Source of the DNA: Vermamoeba vermiformis
Lineage: Eukaryota
Length of the DNA: 20,000 nt
Direction of reading: 5' to 3'
Assembly (NCBI GenBank): GCA_045837725.1
Contig: JBEWZL010000235.1
Location: 421,450-441,449 of the forward strand
The notes under the pieces were generated by a model that had not been told where the DNA came from, made no database searches, and saw nothing but the letters and a program-made list of their open reading frames with translations. Each line of letters opens with the position of its first letter. The stretch's first letter is position 1. Shown piece by piece: positions 8,516 through 20,000 of the stretch. Both the position numbers and the translations under genes were made by a program.

Positions 8516-9144
8516 TCAAGAACCAAAACCGTAGAGTGTTCTGCCTTGTCTCTTGAGCGAGTACACGACGTCCATTGCAGTCACGGTCTTGCGCTTTGCG
8601 TACTGATAAAACTGTTAGGGTACAATATTTCGTCACTTGGCTAAATTAAGATGTGCACGAATTTGAATTGAGAAGTGATTGTTTGGTGTTTTTTGCACCT
8701 TAACGCTCCGATTATTGTGCAATCTTAAACTTTCTTGTTTTGAATGAAAAGCTAAGTGTATTTTAGCGTACGCACGCGGTCACCATACTTCCTTCAAAAA
8801 ATTTGGCGTTCCATTCACAGTATTGTAATTTCCTGGTCTTAAATTGACAGAGGACACCTACTTCAGTGTAAGTCACGGCGTCACGCACAACCTTCTCCAA
8901 GAACACGTGCAACACGCCGCGCGTCTCTTCGTAGATCAAGCCGCTGATTCTCTTCACTCCTCCACGACGCGCAAGTCTTTTAATCGCGGGTTGGTAACAT
9001 GAGTGATTGATTCGCGGTATAGCTGTTAAACTCAGATTAGAGACGGAATTGCACTGGAAGGTTGCGTACTCTTCTTCTGCGCTTGACACCGCCTGTTCCG
9101 ATGCCTTTCAAGCCAAGACCTTTGCCTTTACCTATTCCTGACAT
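8516..9144 (-). CDS. H4: Histone H4, divergent variant, 3 exons; apparent 1-nt frameshift (possible pseudogene or sequence error)
   Basis: Exons 9144-9070 ([25 protein letters not shown]), 9022-8862 (...[43 protein letters not shown]) and 8602-8516 ([28 protein letters not shown]). Exon 2 is 161 nt between two phase-0 introns, one base short of staying in frame. Confidence 0.92.
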
Positions 9145-10892: not shown

Positions 10893-13136
10893 ATGAATAA
10901 CACATTACGTTGTACTATATATTTAGTATTCTTTATTGTATTTTCCTTCGTTGCAGCGGTAAGCGATCGCGTAGATGTATTGCCACTCGTAAAAACTCAC
11001 TTACACGTTTTGTAGAATGAAATTGTAAATATAGAAGGCCTGGGAAAGGTCCGAGGCCATTTTATTTCGGATAAAACAATTGAATTCCTTGGGATCCCGT
11101 ACGTAACAACTTTTTACGACGATTAAATAATTTTAAACAATTATCCGAATGAAGCAATAGTATTCAAAAATCATGGAAAATAATCGCTTGGCATTAGAAA
11201 ATTAAATCTATTTTGCAAAGCTTTTCGGGGACTGACACGATCTATTTTTATAGCTACGCTGAACCCCCCGTTGGCGATCGTCGCTTGAGACCATCAACTC
11301 CCGTTCAGCCGTGGAAAAACACTATTGAAGCCACTCGTGGCGTGATTTGTCCTCAACATCCCCCTCGCTTCACTCCCCACCACTTGGAGCGATCCGAAGA
11401 CTGCTTAGTGGTCAATATTTGGACTCCCGCTGATACTACTCCTAAGAGCAAGCTGCCTGTCTTGGTATATATTCACGGTGGTGCTTTCTACGTCGGTAGT
11501 GGTCTCGATAATTATGCCAATCCGCACAACTTGACGCAGGTAAGGCGTTACCGAAAAGTGATCGATAATTTAACTAACGAACAATAGAACGACGTTATTT
11601 TTGTGAACGTTAACTATCGTCTTGGGTTTTTGGGATTTTTGGCGCATCCAGCATTGACTCGTGAAAATCCTACGAAGCCGTGCAATTTTGGTTTGCTCGA
11701 TCAACGTCTCGCACTCGATTGGGTCAGCAAACACATTGGCGCGTTTGGAGGCGATAGCAGCAACATTACTTTAATGGGAGAGTCCGCGGGTGCAATTAGT
11801 ATCATGGCTCACTTGGCCGCAGCTGACGTGTACAACCCGCCGGTGAGCAAGGCTGTTATCATGAGCAGTGTTCCTTGGTTCACACGTGCCAATCTCTCGC
11901 ATGCCGAGGAGCTCGGTGTTAACTTGGTGAAGAAGTTGGGCTGCAGCGGCACTGAGTAAGTGATGGTGAGCAGTTGGCAAACGATATTAACCCAATCAAA
12001 TAGCGACGAAGTTTTGAAGTGCTTGCGTGCTCTTCCGGCTGAAGATTTTATGATCGCGATGAGTCTTCGCTTGGTGTTCTTCTGGCATCTGTCAGAGACC
12101 GGCCCTGCCTTGATTCACGATGGTATCAACTTCAAGGAGCCCAACGTTGGTTCATTTATGGAGGTATTTCAAACACTGTGTACAAGAGTTAAGTAATAAC
12201 GCGTGCATTTGTAGGGCAAATTCAAGCACGACATTCCATTGATGATCGGTACCACCGCTGAAGAAGGCAATCTCTTCGTGTTCTTGTCCTTCTTGTTGCA
12301 CAAACCAACCGAAGATCTGTACAAAGACTTGGTTCATAAGGCATTTGGACGATTCTCCGAGTCTGTTCCTGGAATCGTGGACGAGATTTTTGAGCGTTAT
12401 TCGTTGACGACTCCTAAATACTGTAAGCCGTTCGTGATGCATTTTAATAACGCGTTATTAATGTCTGTCAGCCACTTTCCCTGCTTTCTATGCCCTTGGC
12501 GATATCATTACTGACGTCAGCTTCACTTGTCCGTCACAACAAATGTTGAAATCAGCGCACGAGTTCAGCACGAGCAAACACCCGAATGGCCATAAGAATG
12601 TCTACGGCTACCTGTGGAACTACAACCACGATCCCAGCGACGTCATGCGCGCTTATCACGGTAGCGAGTTGCCTTACTTCTTTGGCGGCGGTGACAGAAC
12701 TCAACCTGACTCCGTGACACTCGGCAAACAAGTCTTCGCGTACGTGCTGCAGTTCATCAGAACGGGATCGCCTTCCTTGCCCAATCAGCCTGCATGGCCA
12801 GCCTTCGGCAGTGAGCACAATGTGCTGGTGCTCCAACCGAATATCACCATGCAGACCCACTTCAAAGACGAGATCTGTCAGTGGTGGCAGAATAACTTCC
12901 CTAAGGGCATGCCGATGAGCACCGAGGACTTGCTCGCTGACGAACCATTCCTATCAGCGCTCTTTAACAAGTACGTCTTATTTGTCCTGATTATGTTCAA
13001 CAGAAAGCCTCGAATTGCCTATTCCATCACTGGCGTTGTCCTCTTGCTCTTCGGACTCGCCTTGTACAAAGTTGTAAAAGCCATTTGCTGCCGTCGTAAA
13101 AAGCCGGTTGCGACAAAGCAAAAGAAGCAGCAATAA
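10893..13136 (+). CDS. Type-B carboxylesterase/lipase with signal peptide and C-terminal transmembrane anchor; spliced
   Basis: Motifs FLGIPYAEPPVG, SEDCLVVNIWTP, YIHGGAF, VNYRLGFLGF and NFGLLDQRLALDWV. Catalytic triad in GESAG, GTTAEEG and YHGSELPYFFG. A TM helix is followed by a basic tail. Confidence 0.95.
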
Positions 13137-13239: not shown

Positions 13240-15216
13240 ATGACCACAAGCGAAATCGCCGAATTTGATGCCGCGTTGTGGCAGGATCTCAGCAATTATG
13301 ATTTCAAGCCAGGTATGTGACACGATCGTGATCGACGGGACCTAAAAAGCGCCCTTTGATATCTATAGAAGGATATAATTAATTGGATATTATTGAGCAC
13401 TTTTTTAATGTTCTTCGTACAACAGTTGAATTTTATTTCGTAAATTACGATAATTAATTTTATTAAGATCCCGCCGGTTACCGTGCTCTTATTGATTTAT
13501 AATTTAGGATTTGGATTTATGCGCGAAGCTCCACTAGAACGATTGCCAGAGTACTTCAATCCATGGGAGGATCTGCTTAACAAAATGCCGCAATTGTTAA
13601 AACGCGACGAAGATGAGCCCCAACGTACTAATTATATTGGAGAAGATTTTTACACCGAAGTTGCGAAAATGCCACTGCTGGATCCTGCTAAACTATCGGA
13701 TACGGTAATAGAAATTTAGCCGTTGTTTTATTCAGCTTATTAATACGATAATTTAGAAATTACTCTCGCGCGGAATGCTAGTTATTTCATTACTTGGTCA
13801 CGGTTTCATGTTTGGCGATTACCGAAGGTAGATCTAATTGACATTTTCAACCGATCTGTCATTTTTTCCCGAGTACTTGAAAACGATAACGAGTCTCCTT
13901 ATTATTGTGCGAATAATATCAGAACGATTTTATGAAATTTGATATTATTGTGCATTTTCAGACCTTTTGAACTGTCGTTTTACGATTCAGGCTCACATTT
14001 GACCGAAGCTTCTTTGAGTTCGGAACTAACAATCTCTGATAGAAAAATAGTGCACGCTGAAATACCACCTAATATTGCCATTCCATGGGTTCTCATTGCT
14101 GATCGTTTACAACGGCCGCCCATTATCAGCCACGATTCACTGAACCTGTCAAACTATAAATTTGCGCGACCAGACATCGATCCTACCAAAGAGAAAATAT
14201 TCACTGAGGATCTAATCAAGCTCGACGGATTTTTGGACGATTACTCGGAGGATTGGTTTTACCTGGTCACATCCGAACTCGAATTCAGAGGCTCAGCTTT
14301 GCCCTTCTTGTTCCGTAGAATTCACGAAGGAATTTTGCAAAAGAGTAAGCAAGACATCGATATTTGAGTCAAAAACTAATGACGTTGTAGAGTTGGATGC
14401 GAACGAAATCGTTGCCTCGTTGAACAAAGTGTACTTATTGCTGGAGGAGATCAACAGAGTTATCCTCAAAATGTTCGAGAAGTGCGACCCTACAATCTTT
14501 TATCACAAGCGTACGTACTTTTATTGAAAAACCAACGCATTCTGACACGTGCCAAACAGTTCGGCCATACCTGAATGGCAGCAAGAACAACTCGCTCGCA
14601 CCGCAAGGAGTACTTCTACAAATGAACATTACGTCTCAAGACGCTGAGGAGCAGCGCATTGCACGATCAGTCCCTCACGAATTGAAAGAGAAGTACTCAG
14701 CGCCGACTTTCTACCACGGTGGATCCGCTGGTCAATCTTCTTTGATTGCTGTACGTACAACACCTATTAGTTAGTATAGCGCTCATATTTATCACAGTCC
14801 ATCGACACATTCTTTGCCGTCGAGCACACTGGTCCTGAAAGCAAGCCATTCATGACTGCCATGCGGGAGGTACGTCTAACAAGATCAGCTCTTGTTGAAC
14901 GTTAATATTGATTACGGATGTTCTATAGTATATGCCCAAGCCACATCGTAGTCTTCTCGAAGTATTGGATCGCAATCGCAGTGTTTTGAAAGAATACATC
15001 AGCGAGAATCGTGACAAGCCCGAGTTAACTGAAATTTACAACAAATGCGTCGAACAGTTTGCTGAATTCCGTTCTAAGCACCTGCAAATCGTTGCGCGTT
15101 ATATCGTTAACCCTGCTCGCGCTACTGGCACGCCTGTCAGTGGCACTGGTGGATCCAGCGCCGTCCCATTTTTGAAATCTGTGCGTGACGAGACCCGTGA
15201 GTCAATGATCAAGTAA
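13240..15216 (+). CDS. IDO: Indoleamine 2,3-dioxygenase family heme dioxygenase; spliced
   Basis: Motifs IPPNIAIPW, SEDWFYLV, FYHKLRPYLNG, GGSAGQSS, MREYMPKPHR, FRSKHLQIVARYI (proximal His region) and GTGGS. All exons join in frame through GT-AG introns. Confidence 0.93.
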
Positions 15217-15415
15217 TTGCTGTACTACACGCTCGTCGTGTAATTGTAAATATTTACGCGAATAAACTTCACTTTTTTGAATGAAAACTCCTATTTTTCT
15301 GACCTTTTTCTGACGCTAATAAAGCACCACCGACAGATTCTGTTCTTTTCAGCTAAAACAAATACGTCTTCTCACACCAATACCTCAAACCTTATTATTT
15401 AGCAACTTTCATCTA

Positions 15416-16361
15416 ATGGGCAATACTCAACCTTCTACGTAAGTATTCGACGAGGGCAATGCCATCCCTTTTTTTTTTGCTTGTTGTTTCTTTTTCTGAT
15501 TCTGTTTTATAATATATTAGAGAAATTGCGCAAGCAAATTGTCCTCTCGTGCGTTTAGTTGAAGATGTTTTTGTTATCGTATTACGTAATATCCAATTGC
15601 GTGATTTTATTTCATTGATGTCAACGTGTAAATTATTTTATTACCACCGTCTAGGCTCTGTAAGTTACTTTTATATCATGATCACCCTTTTACAGACAGT
15701 TTTAATTTTAATTCGATTTTTTAGAACAATTATTTTTGGGCTCAATTCTGCACCCAAGTTGCGGGCAGTATTAATAACCTCTTAATGAACGTGCAACAAG
15801 GCCGTCGCTTCACTATGAACGGATCCCATCGACTTAAAAACGCCGATCCTGCCAACGGATAAAACGATTATCGAGCAATTCAATTTCCGTTCAGAGCTCG
15901 AAAAGTATTTCATCCTGATCGTCAATCGTCTGCGCCTTCAATCGCTGTTCAATCTCAAGCCGCCATATGCGTACCTTGCTCTTCCAGCAGTAACAGTTAA
16001 TGCAGTGTCCTCGAGGTGGCCCCGTCCTTGGACCAATCCCAACAAATCGCAACAACAATATGCGCTCGATTATTACTATTTCGTTGATTTCTTCGGAGGC
16101 AATCCGACCCTACTTTCGCCCTTTTTACTCAACCCTGTTCTCCCCGACCAGATCGGAGGCCGAGAAATCGTTTACAACAATGCTACTAATCAACCGCCAA
16201 TTTACAACCCTTTGCAAATTTCGCGATTGGGACCAAGTCCCTATCAGCCATCGCAAATAGCCCCTTCTCTAGTCGGTGCTCATCCGAAGAACTTCAATCC
16301 AAAGCCATGGAATGGTCGTTTTCACCCTTACAACGCGAAGAGAGATCACGATAAAAAGTAA
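15416..16361 (+). CDS. F-box protein with possible N-myristoylation site; 3' structure uncertain
   Basis: First exon MGNTQPST. F-box-like segment LVRLVEDVFVIVLRNIQLRDFISLMSTCKLFY...NNYFW. The downstream ORF 15819-16361 is in a different frame and needs a frameshift or an intron to join. Confidence 0.6.
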
Positions 16362-16967
16362 TATTGTAGTAGGTGAATTCAACGGAAATTGTTAAATGAT
16401 CAAGTATGTCGTTGCCAACAAAGCGCTAAAATAAAACAAAACGAACTTTCGTAACCACAAGATGCACCATTTTCATTACTGTGCAAGGAATGGACGACAG
16501 ATTATAAATATTTATTTCAAAATAATAACACGAGTATTGCAGAGGTATGGAAAGATTACGCTCGAAAAAAGTTGATTCGTTTGTGATATTTTAAAATTAA
16601 TTAATCGATGTTTTATCCGCTAATTATTTCGTATTACGTTGCTTGAATTTATTTTTATCAGAGAACAATTATTTCGTCTCTGATCTGTTGCGTTTTTAAT
16701 TTCGCTATTGAAGTAACGAAGATAATTTCTTCAAGGGTTGGCGTAATAGTCGGCAATTTATTTAGACATATGCATAGTTGCAATAAGTTACTCACCACTT
16801 TAATAGGTTGGACGAATTACATTTTGTGAATCGCTCGGGTGCATACAAATGACACGTTTCCGGGTCAATGTGAGTCTTTTAGTACCATTAAACTGATTTG
16901 ATTCATTTTAACAATATTCTCATTAGAAGTGCCACACAGCTCCGAATTAAAAGTGCGACCGAACAAA

Positions 16968-17300
16968 ATGCATCTGGCAACGAAGACGCAATTTCAGCTG
17001 CTCGTGCTCGCCTTCTATTGCGTAATTTTTGTAGACGCAACTCTTACTACAATAACCACTTTGGATAACCCAACTGGCATTGTGACTTTTGATGATCTTG
17101 GTTTCTCGACACCGACCGACATCCGTGGCAACGTTGTATTACTAAACACTCCAGACCAGAAGATTATTTTATCAAGCAACAATGCATCAATTACTGACTA
17201 CTCTGTTGGCGCGAACGGCAATTGGGACGGATCTAAAGCTTGGTTCAACAGCACCGGTGGGTTAGGGTTAGGGAAAACGGAGAGATCTGGCGGTAAGTAG
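16968..17300 (+). pseudogene. Secreted protein gene, probably truncated by the insertion starting at about 17259
   Basis: Signal peptide MHLATKTQFQLLVLAFYCVIFVDA, then a beta-rich segment ending NGNWDGSKAWFNSTGG. The frame then reads through the telomeric tract (LGLG) and stops 7 codons later inside the hairpin region. Confidence 0.5.
17259..17273 (+). repeat. Short interstitial telomeric repeat GGG(TTAGGG)2
   Basis: Exact sequence GGGTTAGGGTTAGGG, 2.5 units of TTAGGG with the G-rich strand on +. Confidence 0.8.
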
Positions 17301-17528
17301 ATCTCGTTTGAATGTATTATTTTATTTACAATTCAATAGTCATATAATAGATTATATGTATAAATATGAGATTTCCTTATTAATTATTTAGCAGGGTTCA
17401 CGGGCGAGCGGAGCGAGCCCGTGTAAAACGCGATCCAGCAGATTTTTCCGCTGGATTTTTGGCACGAGATTCTGCGCGAACTTTACTCGTGTCATTAATT
17501 GAACAAGTAACAACAACAACTCGTGTCA
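17275..17528 (+). repeat. Array of short inverted repeats (stem-loops) plus one direct repeat
   Basis: GAGATCT/AGATCTC (17282-88, 17299-305); CATATAAT/ATTATATG (17341-58); CACGGGC/GCCCGTG (17399-423); ATCCAGC/GCTGGAT (17433-56); TGGCACGAG/CTCGTGTCA (17460-94). Direct repeat ACTCGTGTCA at 17485 and 17519. Confidence 0.8.
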
Positions 17529-17637: not shown

Positions 17638-17696
17638 GGTTACATTTAAACCAAGGCTGAGTGATTAGTGTATTATTTAAAAGTGAAGCTATTCTT

Positions 17697-19972
17697 ATGG
17701 CTGGTAAGTTCCGTTCTTAATTAAATTCGAGTCAGATCTTTAAATTAATTTATTTTTACGCAGAATTCAGTTGCGAGCAATGCAACAAACAATTCTCGAA
17801 GCTATCGAAGCGTAATTATCACGTGAAAGACTGCCACCCTGCCGATATTGACAGTTTAAAGTGTAAATTATGTGCGAAACAATTCCAAGCTGTTTCTTCT
17901 CGTGTTCGACATGAAGATCAAGGCTGTCCTGCGGAAAAATCAGTTGTTTTAGTCCCAACAGCAGCAATAAACACAGAGCGTGTAAATCATCGCCACAAAA
18001 AGCAAAAAAATGTTTTGTCAGCAAAATCATTGCGCATTGTTCAAATGTATCGTGAATATTTACAGCACGGAGGAACATCAGTGTATTTGCTCAGCCAAGG
18101 CAAGAAAAATCTCCAAGGTGCTAGCATTGACACTTACTCAACGCACTTGACCGATTTCCTTGCTTATATTGAGGTAAGTCAATTTGCCTGTAAACGCAAT
18201 TATAACTCTTTCATGCACAGGAGTCGCTTCCAAATGCCGACATTATTGATCACTTCTTGCGCGTGAAGACAGTTAAGGATTACATTACGTATTTGGAGCA
18301 ATCAAAGTACACGCAAAAGACTATTCTTAATCGACTACTCTCACTGGAGCGATTGTGTGGCTTGCTTGATGAAAAGTTCGACTTAATCTTCAATGGCCAA
18401 ATATCTGATCGCAAGGGCTCAACTCAGACTCGTACTGCTATCAAGACTACCTTTGATTGGGTCAAAGCGCAGGCAAAGATGACAAGTCCTATAGCAAACA
18501 AGGAAACCAAAGTTCGCAACAGTAGAGAAGCTCTCGAATCTGATAGTCGTTGGATTGCAGTTGCAAAGTTGTTTGAAAAAGAAGCTGAGCTAAAACCTGT
18601 AATGGACACTTTACTTGATAACATTGCCGCCAGCTCAGAGCCGTAAGTCAACTTAAGCATTTATTTGATTGACTAACTCAGCAATAGACCTTCAAAGAGA
18701 GATTTGCAACAGATTCAACAGTATATAATGTATTTAATGGTTATTCAACAACCACCACTAAGAGCTCAAAACTTTGACTTGATTATTCTTGATAAACTTG
18801 AATCTCCTCAAGAAGCCTCTCATAATGGAATTGTGTTTGAAGAAAAGAGTGTTATTTTACAGTACAGCAAGTACAAAACGCATGCGTAAGTCAAATAACT
18901 TTATTTATTACAATTCTAATTGGTTATTTTCAGGTCATATGGTTTTGTTAAGTTTTACCTCTCAGACACATTAGCTGGCTATGTTCGACGCTTTTACAAT
19001 GATGTTCGTCCTTGGCTATTCAAGGATAAAGCAAATGCTCCCACTATTGGTTCTTACTTGTTTGTTAATCAATATGGAGAAAGGCTACAAAGCATTGGAG
19101 CTTATTTTAAAGCAGCTATGAAGAAGTACTTTAACCAAGAGATTACTATTGGCATCATTCGCAAAGTAATGGAAACAGCAGTGAGTGAATGCTCCTTGTT
19201 TAACTCAGCTATTCGCGATAACCTGTCAATGGCAATGCTTCATGATCCAGAAACGGCACGAAGATACTATGTGTGCAAGGACAGTGAAGAGGCCAGTAAA
19301 ACAATTAATGGACAGTGGCAACAGCTGCGTCAATTCTACTCAACTCCATCATTGACGACTCCTGCAGTTGAACAAGTAGTCGAACCTGAAGCTATTGAAG
19401 TGCCAATGCAAATAGAACAGCCTATAAGTCCTATACCTTCAAATAACAACATGCGCACAGACCAATCTCCAATTGCAACAAGCGCACTTGAGCTTGTGCC
19501 AACCAGCTCTTTGTCTCAACGTTTTTCTTGGGTATCTCCTACAAAACAACTAAGTGCAGTGCCAAGCCTTGTTGCCTCTCCTTCACATGATGATAATAGT
19601 GAACAAGCAGAGGATGTTCGAGAAATTGCTAATTCAATTGCGTCAAATTTGGTGCCTGCAGCTCAGCCAACAAAAAAGCCACAGTCCGACTTTAAAACTT
19701 TGCAACGACCTGGAGATTGGCCTTGTTCTTTTTGTGGATACATCAACTTCTCTTACCGTATGGTTTGTAACCGCTGTGGAAAAGCAAAGAACAAAAGAAG
19801 TGCTTATGAAGAACATGAACAAAAACAAAAGAAAGCAAGGTTTGGCTCTGATATCACTGAAGTCCTTAGCAAGTCTACAAATAAGCAAGGTGAAGTTATA
19901 TACAAAGTAAAGTCCAGCAAAAAAGGAGAACTCTGGGTAAGAGCCAAGCACGTGCCGCAGCACTTGTTGTAA
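17697..19972 (+). CDS. Multidomain tyrosine recombinase (2 zinc fingers - integrase core-binding-like - YR catalytic - RanBP2 zinc finger - chromo-like), 691 aa, 5 exons
   Basis: Exons 17697-17703, 17764-18173, 18221-18642, 18688-18885 and 18934-19972 sum to 2076 nt, in frame, all with GTAAGT donors. Catalytic-type residues: PPLR (R 18761), KYKTHASYG (K 18875), GIIRK (R 19160) and MLHDPETARRYY (H 19241, Y 19265/19268). Confidence 0.85.
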
Positions 19973-20000
19973 AGTTTAAATCTTTGTAGTTAGTTGTAAA

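Follow-up and report, generated by a model that had tools for sequence, protein, structure and literature searches.

Results

A telomeric tract between a truncated host gene and a recombinase unit

The window, by which we mean the whole stretch of DNA analyzed, is the final 20 kb of a 441-kb contig from the 43-Mb, intron-rich genome of Vermamoeba vermiformis, and the contig ends at window position 20000. Close to that end, a perfect telomeric tract of 15 nt at 17259–17273 joins a truncated host gene to a unit of 2.7 kb or more that carries a tyrosine recombinase (YR) gene (Table 1). The sequence quoted in the original prediction is present at 17253–17280. That prediction had described the tract as the only tandem TTAGGG in the window, with its G strand pointing into the element, and both statements are borne out: the tandem repeat occurs once and arose in none of 200 shuffles, and the G strand runs into the element and also toward the contig end. 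A telomere-capped linear element, in which the C strand would come first, is rejected by this orientation. Lone copies of TTAGGG are not enriched in the window (7 matches against a chance mean of 4.63, with 7 or more in 38 of 200 shuffles).

Table 1. Features of the window around the telomeric tract, with neighboring host genes.
Feature	Position (nt)	Strand	Remark
Other host genes: indoleamine 2,3-dioxygenase, carboxylesterase-like gene, histone H4-like piece	13936–15217; 11198–13136; 8763–9107	− for 8763–9107	Last two by eye; coordinates of the three given together
Host gene, 5' part, cut at the junction	16968–17258	+	ORF; signal-peptide-like start by eye
Telomeric tract, variable proximal part	17259–17264	+	Putative telomerase addition at break
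Invariant telomeric 9-mer opening the element	17265–17273	+	Putative crossover core / left att site
Family-A start, imperfect inverted repeat (arms ~17282–17288 and 17299–17305)	17274–17313	+	2 matches genome-wide
GC-rich hairpin	17399–17423	+	~125 nt from start; conserved in 4 of 5 aligned families
Intact five-exon YR gene	17697–19972	+	691 aa plus stop
YR exons	17697–17703, 17764–18173, 18221–18642, 18688–18885, 18934–19972	+	Exon model, single terminal stop
Start of 3' region	19973–20000	+	Contig stops; right end of window copy unassembled

The host ORF stays open through the tract as far as a stop at 17298–17300, and its alignment to a paralogue on contig C257 stops at query residue 97, the codon right before the tract, from where the paralogue extends for more than 100 aa in the same ORF. 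Intact homologues encoding GGLGLG and element copies lacking TTAGGG had been named as grounds for abandoning the prediction; the paralogue is without GGLGLG at the position of the tract, and other copies carry the tract. No second near-identical copy of the host gene was found in the assembly, and a search for its missing 3' half gave 12 family matches, none of them tied to the host gene.

The telomere unit of the genome, on which the prediction also depended, is TTAGGG, as tandem matches number 835 against 2 for the reversed control and, of the 16 contig ends listed, 15 bear telomere arrays of ~110–250 nt and one was scored from a partial run. The genome also has a TERT gene. In run X1, probably the source sample, coverage as roughly gauged from contig depth drops from 440 to 156 across 16332–17288 and an alternative continuation departs at 16378; therefore, the window's chromosome end is probably present in only about a third of the chromosome copies. 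The chromosome end looks polymorphic within this sample (window 15500–17288 in run X1), which suggests several chromosome copies and a recent terminal change.

The recombinase gene

The YR is the single gene in the window unit, and its product has, in order, C2H2 fingers, a SAM-like domain, a catalytic domain and a RanBP2-type finger. Pfam matched the RanBP finger in the window ORFs and Phage_int_SAM_1 above the cut-off in two of 36 full-length homologues, including P0022, and gave no match to PF00589 at these loci; the catalytic columns R/K/R/H/Y are conserved among the homologues. The best Atlas match was a YR cluster (0.97), and a telomere resolvase cluster (0.91) ranked 26th, below ordinary YR clusters. 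A predicted model of the catalytic domain of homologue P0020 (pLDDT 82.5) had XerH, Cre, XerA and Tn1549 Int as its top PDB rows, weak matches with a best E of 7.8e-3 (prob 1.0), and 11 matches to viral folds at E ≤ 0.001, the best of them giant-virus and virophage proteins. By its conserved catalytic residues, SAM-like domain and modeled fold, the product of the window gene is a member of the tyrosine recombinase superfamily. Other searches returned little: a single-sequence model of P0022 was of low confidence (pLDDT 38.8), PDB sequence matches were limited to the RanBP finger, the last exon retrieved nothing from longer proteins in the first homologue search, PHROGs gave nothing useful and none of 13 pattern matches in an IMG/VR scan was confirmed.

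Compared with the metagenomic relative L148, the intact gene has a dN/dS of 0.05 over 480 codons at a dS of 1.65, which indicates strong purifying selection. Two RNA runs with the same species label, 90–95% alike, contain no reads on the YR gene; both contain reads in both directions on a related 5' region, which are uninformative on strand and expression. Distant homologues of ~30–45% identity with the same domain order (P0014, P0018, P0020, P0022 and P0023) occur on contigs of 2–3 kb from other samples. No terminal inverted repeat is listed for the window unit, whose right end is unassembled. The GC-rich hairpin near its left end is a candidate recombinase-binding or promoter element. The copy of family A on C257 is cut directly after the imperfect inverted repeat, and on a contig of run X1 family A breaks off at 17642, at a telomere-like site within the unit, and telomere repeats heal the cut.

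The fixed left end and its junctions

The 52 nt at window 17262–17313 have a 100% match on C257 beside an unrelated flank, where the copy adjoins a broken gene of carboxylesterase-like appearance (by eye) and precedes another telomeric seed and a related YR unit. The original prediction had placed the tract exactly at the boundary of host and element, in agreement with the end of the paralogue homology at residue 97 and the start of the C257 match at 17262. Five divergent units were aligned, namely those of the window, of L148, which comes from an independent metagenome, and of three other families. In all five the telomeric 9-mer plus one base is invariant, the spacing to downstream motifs is conserved and the upstream DNA is unrelated. 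Window 17265–17279 is identical in L148 despite the dS of 1.65, and the left end does not shift by a single base between families with YRs of 46–86% identity. Of 34 seed-led starts, 32 have a perfect tract of 8–18 nt and two have one of 3 nt.

A third family-A junction was found in run X1, and its flank maps to C6:345193–345220. The corresponding empty site (C6:345193–345230), the one empty site that is readable, is an intact gene, histidine-kinase-like by eye, that lacks TTAGGG and overlaps the tract by two bases. By eye, and unscored, element–element junctions with a known intact continuation resemble those between terminal telomeres and truncated units, and in protein P0001, from another assembly, family A appears by eye to be cut and to run through translated telomere repeats into a family-B start. 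Since the repeats upstream are variable, the start is invariant and the junctions resemble healed ends, the proximal repeats of the tract look telomerase-made and the distal 9-mer seems to be the element's own. Variant repeats with G in the third place occur in terminal arrays (L062, L064, L084 and L093) and in the junction tract on C276, and their presence in both settings is supporting evidence for a telomerase origin of the filler.

Among 33 candidates judged by eye for upstream DNA resuming past the element, there were no insertions at a seed. Because upstream DNA never resumes beyond the element, the junctions represent end-capping and not insertion into a gene. The 18-mers upstream of the 34 seed-led starts include none common to different contigs, a count in which collapsed tails could hide sharing; two starts have a near-identical leader. 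Junction overlaps and unit lengths were read by eye and are unscored against a null. They include very short units followed by a restart, of ~50 nt on C257, 78 on C267, 218 on C276, 40 on C185 and 12 at L149, and in run X1 a 30-nt start (window 17260–17289) is followed by a restart of the same unit, forming a back-joint.

A second class of units has an AT-rich leader of ~15 nt before the telomeric seed and is joined directly by A/T overlaps with no added repeats. Twelve AT-leader starts were recorded at L078, L084, L087, L092, L094, L096, L100, L076, L098, L091 and L074, other families have such starts too, and at C44 the AT-rich leader continues straight into telomere. For the 12-start family of the catalogue, a tblastn search returned no YR.

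Polar arrays at chromosome ends

All 46 sites in the genome at which a tandem repeat is followed by a non-T base were inspected, and 22 seeds remained for a count of positions restricted to contigs of at least 100 kb and to sites outside terminal arrays. Nineteen of these lie less than 20 kb from the distal end, in the direction of the G strand (17 of 19 contigs), and none lies that close to the proximal end, with 1.5 expected at each. This one-sidedness is left unexplained by the repeat bias of contig ends. The exceptions are on C77 (215 kb), C152 (88 kb) and C260 (49 kb), at G000:C77:562802, C152:87621 and C260:48609. The C260 seed opens a known unit, in a long array or an internalized relic, and the far-from-end seeds on C77 and C152 look unrelated.

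Approximately 20 recurrent starts were catalogued, in a catalogue that was oriented by seeds and whose uniform polarity is, therefore, not independent of the count of seed positions. The points at which telomere or a following unit cuts off a unit vary, and no unit resumes beyond them. Seed-led units form polar, distally truncated head-to-tail arrays at chromosome ends. Matches to type-1 YRs were found on six contigs and to type-2 YRs on nine, all 15 within 20 kb of a contig end, several of these contigs being small and array-only. The type-2 genes are on the G strand on C16 and C231 and on the C strand on C117, C123, C183, C190, C205, C228 and C163, and introns are retained in YR genes on both strands.

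The 11-mer seed is not enriched genome-wide, with 22 occurrences against 19 for the reversed control; unit starts account for 13 of the 22, and the other nine fall outside the inspected set. The seed motif predicted unseen units on C118 (with a YR) and C152, both near contig ends and both unit starts. A shared distal module that ends in degenerate telomere-like repeats was found on seven contigs and precedes telomere or the next unit in five of six aligned cases, and C16 has, at a chromosome end, a 3.8-kb unit bounded on either side by telomeric DNA. Therefore, some units have two telomere-like ends. In addition, C231 and C16 have common 3' DNA, and P0005 looks like a B/A chimaera.

Other sequences were observed at chromosome ends. 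Cargo-like ORFs in the end arrays have a SET domain and DUF6939 (Pfam), and a glycosylase resembling Fpg/Nei by eye is without a Pfam match (cargo-like ORFs are at L091 3738–4500, at L085 5099–5620 and, on the C strand, at L086, L077, L083 and L091). A multi-exon protein family recurs beside chromosome ends at L066, L064, L082 and L087 (C21, C32, C185 and C221), and the pieces searched had no Pfam, PHROG or Atlas match (Atlas: the C21 ORF). DIRS/Ngaro-like retroelements, with gag, RT and YR by eye, are present at L117–L124 (C210, C182, C244, C22, C3, C267, C24 and C84), several of them at contig ends, and are unrelated to the seed-led units. GIY-YIG had four matches in the genome.

Discussion

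A proposed two-step origin of the junctions

We propose, with a probability of about 0.5, that the units are telomere-dwelling YR DNA transposons that insert themselves into telomere repeats at healed ends, then erode and receive a new cap. A chromosome would first break inside a host gene, which is found truncated at the junction, and its distal part would be lost. Telomerase, as suggested by the junction pattern and the presence of TERT, would then seed TTAGGG on zero to three bases of chance overlap. In a third step the YR would join the left end of the element, with its telomeric 9-mer as core, to these repeats by a crossover in the shared repeat, and the donor would most likely be an excised circle in which telomere-like DNA connects the two ends. 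From the fixed end and the intact YR, we infer that the YR makes the joint; catalysis and the circle are likewise postulated. Finally, distal parts may erode or break, often near the left-end hairpins, and the ends may be re-healed and accept the next unit; loss of long-tract junctions would then yield polar head-to-tail arrays such as those observed, with one to three repeats per joint. Survivorship could account for the short tracts, because interstitial tracts of more than three repeats break in MoTeR arrays, according to the available text of PMC7367193. Units that lack a YR may be non-autonomous or cargo-bearing members, or may belong to a second system.

The original prediction had offered two models, in one of which the element targets telomere-like sequence with the repeat as its crossover site, here within a gene, and in the other of which telomerase added repeats to a broken host end. 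From the first, the telomere as target and the crossover at the repeats are retained, but the telomere-like site in the gene is not, as the C6 empty site has no TTAGGG. From the second, the healing of a break by telomerase and the variable repeat number are retained, but the distal nine bases are a conserved terminus of the element and not filler. The data fit a two-step version, in which telomerase heals the end and the element then joins the new repeats, with the telomere as target, and the connection of a YR element with telomeric DNA, implied by both models, holds.

In favor of a YR-made joint are the fixed left end, the conserved and intact YR, the restriction of YR loci to ends and the seed rule, which holds in L148 and P0001 and led to the units on C118 and C152. 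The units with two telomere-like ends, the introns retained on both strands and the nimaviral precedent count for it as well. Against it, neither a circle nor an att junction was detected, random truncation accounts for most distal ends, and the assembly stops short of the right end in family A. Units that restart after a very short stretch resemble abortive priming more than all-or-none integration. In addition, the AT-leader class is joined without repeats, there are frequent families without a detectable YR, the 11-mer seed is unenriched genome-wide, and a sequence link to nimaviral YRs is absent from our results.

Alternative explanations

Retro-addition in trans, similar to that of Terminons, is one alternative, which we regard as unlikely. 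A C-strand transcript ending in reverse-complement telomere repeats would anneal to the G-rich 3' end and be copied by an RT (an undetected Penelope-type enzyme, telomerase itself or that of a DIRS or gypsy element), with the YR as cargo or helper. The layout fits, since Terminons form head-to-tail arrays truncated by short telomeric stretches in the available text of PMC6431247, and so do the fixed proximal and variable distal ends, the short abortive starts, the lack of upstream resumption and the unique junctions. However, a hammerhead core was found on the C strand in 0 of 17 family starts, with a G-strand look-alike in two of 17, and Rfam returned no ribozyme at E ≤ 1 for 10 loci. Three patterns found no RT motif in 574 kb, in a weak scan that also missed the DIRS RTs present. 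Inspection of ~15 of the weaker among 57 RVT_1 loci showed, wherever ORFs were long, elements that by eye resemble DIRS/Ngaro, gypsy or LINE, and the search with the TERT core retrieved TERT alone. No Penelope-type RT was found by searches that are insensitive to Penelope RTs and that an intron-split RT could escape. Retro-addition is also difficult to reconcile with C-strand YR2 genes that keep their introns, and cargo status would leave the conservation of the YR in many families unexplained.

Host repair on its own is likewise a doubtful explanation. Here, healed ends would invade a telomeric seed elsewhere and copy the unit by break-induced replication (BIR) or microhomology-mediated template copying, with the YR acting rarely or just resolving intermediates; the copying-based spread of yeast Y' elements is an analogue. 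The seeds would be a convenient source of homology, families share or have exchanged distal modules (C231 and C16; P0005), and small array-only contigs with high read depth suggest collapsed, shared tails. BIR from interstitial tracts is documented for MoTeRs in the available text of PMC7367193. Copying of whole tails should, however, duplicate junctions, and no upstream 18-mer is shared between contigs at the 34 starts, an argument that collapse in the assembly weakens. Host repair would also leave unexplained the selection on the YR and on family-specific left ends.

Considerably less probable is an end-joining of linear elements, in which a YR similar to topoisomerase IB or a resolvase would cut at the left boundary and, without a circle, pass the strand to a chromosome end that is free or has just been healed. 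The AT-leader class would be accounted for as well, and the mechanism would suit the single fixed end, the direct joins with overlaps of one to three bases (by eye) and the telomere resolvase cluster among the Atlas matches (0.91). Nevertheless, such a reaction is unprecedented, the resolvase match ranks 26th, below ordinary YR clusters, and the shared distal module points to a second defined end. Practically untenable is a chance origin of the tract as Gly-Leu-Gly-Leu-Gly coding sequence of the host gene, as, although the host ORF is open across it, the paralogue differs from the tract onward, the tract plus 40 nt stands on unrelated flanks and the start is invariant across families.

Comparison with known systems

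Polar arrays at chromosome ends are known from the HeT-A, TART and TAHRE elements of Drosophila (HTT), which erode distally, replace telomerase and use RT, and from the yeast Y' elements, which have short telomeric spacers, encode a helicase and spread by recombination. In contrast to both, TERT is present here and the units encode a YR. The combination of gag, RT/RNase H and YR that marks DIRS/Ngaro is absent from the units, with separate DIRS-like elements elsewhere in the genome. The Helitron Rep-helicase PF14214 had no match in the genome, and the control was likewise without a match.

Terminons (EN-deficient PLEs, Athena-Coprina) are similar in their head-to-tail end arrays and in a proximal end that is fixed and carries a short stretch of telomere, as well as in distal truncation, retained introns and varied accessory ORFs (available text of PMC6431247). 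Unlike in Terminons, no RT or hammerhead was found here and the conserved enzyme is the YR, which is absent from the Terminon accessory ORFs listed in that review text. MoTeRs are telomeric non-LTR retrotransposons whose interstitial tracts of more than three repeats are fragile (available text of PMC7367193). MoTeR and FoTeR are like the present units in residing in telomeres, in their short interstitial tracts, and in being broken, truncated and healed de novo. The enzyme here is instead a YR, and neither the window unit nor its relatives have an RT.

Cryptons are described as YR-only DNA elements with no terminal inverted repeats and a proposed circular intermediate (Kojima and Jurka 2011, PMC3212892, available text). 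The window unit is similar in having only a YR, no RT or DDE and no terminal inverted repeat, the right end being unassembled, but the present units differ in their strict localization to ends and their telomeric core, with no dispersed insertion with resuming flanks and none of the direct repeats of 4–6 bp with host DNA on both sides. Neither GCR1_C nor DUF3504 was among the Pfam matches of seven window ORFs or 36 homologues.

The closest enzymatic counterpart is found in endogenous nimaviruses, which have telomere-repeat-specific YRs with a C2H2 and SAM-like architecture (Kawato et al. 2023, PMC10871703). In the available text of that paper, nimaviral genomes of 280–580 kb from crustaceans, including shrimp, are flanked by repeat tracts, reads suggest episomes or concatemers, and the YR family is described as distinct from giant-virus and virophage YRs. 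The architecture of C2H2 fingers, SAM-like domain and YR and the junction in a telomere motif are alike, whereas the units here are of 3–5 kb or more, form polar, eroding end arrays in a protist and have no viral core genes that we saw. The likeness lies in architecture and junction; by fold, giant-virus and virophage YRs come closest. No nimavirus was among the named top 50 viral folds or in the sequence searches, whose libraries may hold no nimavirus. No pPolB exceeded the cut-off in the genome, and no viral core gene was found by Pfam among 72 end-region ORFs, capsids being outside this profile search.

Defining features of Cryptons (host DNA continuing on both flanks, a Crypton-type domain), Terminons (a hammerhead), DIRS elements and MoTeRs were not found in the units. 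By analogy, the layout seems to be that of a MoTeR or Terminon array and the enzyme to resemble the telomere-targeting YRs of nimaviruses. A small, non-viral YR element that builds end arrays was not found in our searches of the open-access literature, and no such element is described in the available text of the Starship paper (PMC9156397), of a virophage preprint or of a PLE preprint.

Implications

A small element with a YR only would, if the proposal is correct, represent a DNA-based route to the colonization and healing of chromosome ends. The telomere-specialized transposons that we found described (HTT, Terminons and MoTeR/FoTeR) copy through RNA, and the YR precedent found is in giant crustacean viruses, whose telomere targeting was inferred from association in the available text of PMC10871703. 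The YR elements of the end arrays are possibly a new class. We tentatively suggest, as a conjecture that could well prove wrong, a class of eukaryotic DNA elements for chromosome ends in which a YR of the giant-virus and virophage type would add units singly to telomerase-healed or naked ends, building RT-free arrays like those of HeT-A or Terminons, both causing and repairing terminal gene loss and moving cargo genes between ends. The compact, intact recombinase and its defined left end make telomere targeting by a YR testable in vitro. If true, the proposal would explain the rapid, polymorphic loss of subtelomeric host genes in Vermamoeba vermiformis.
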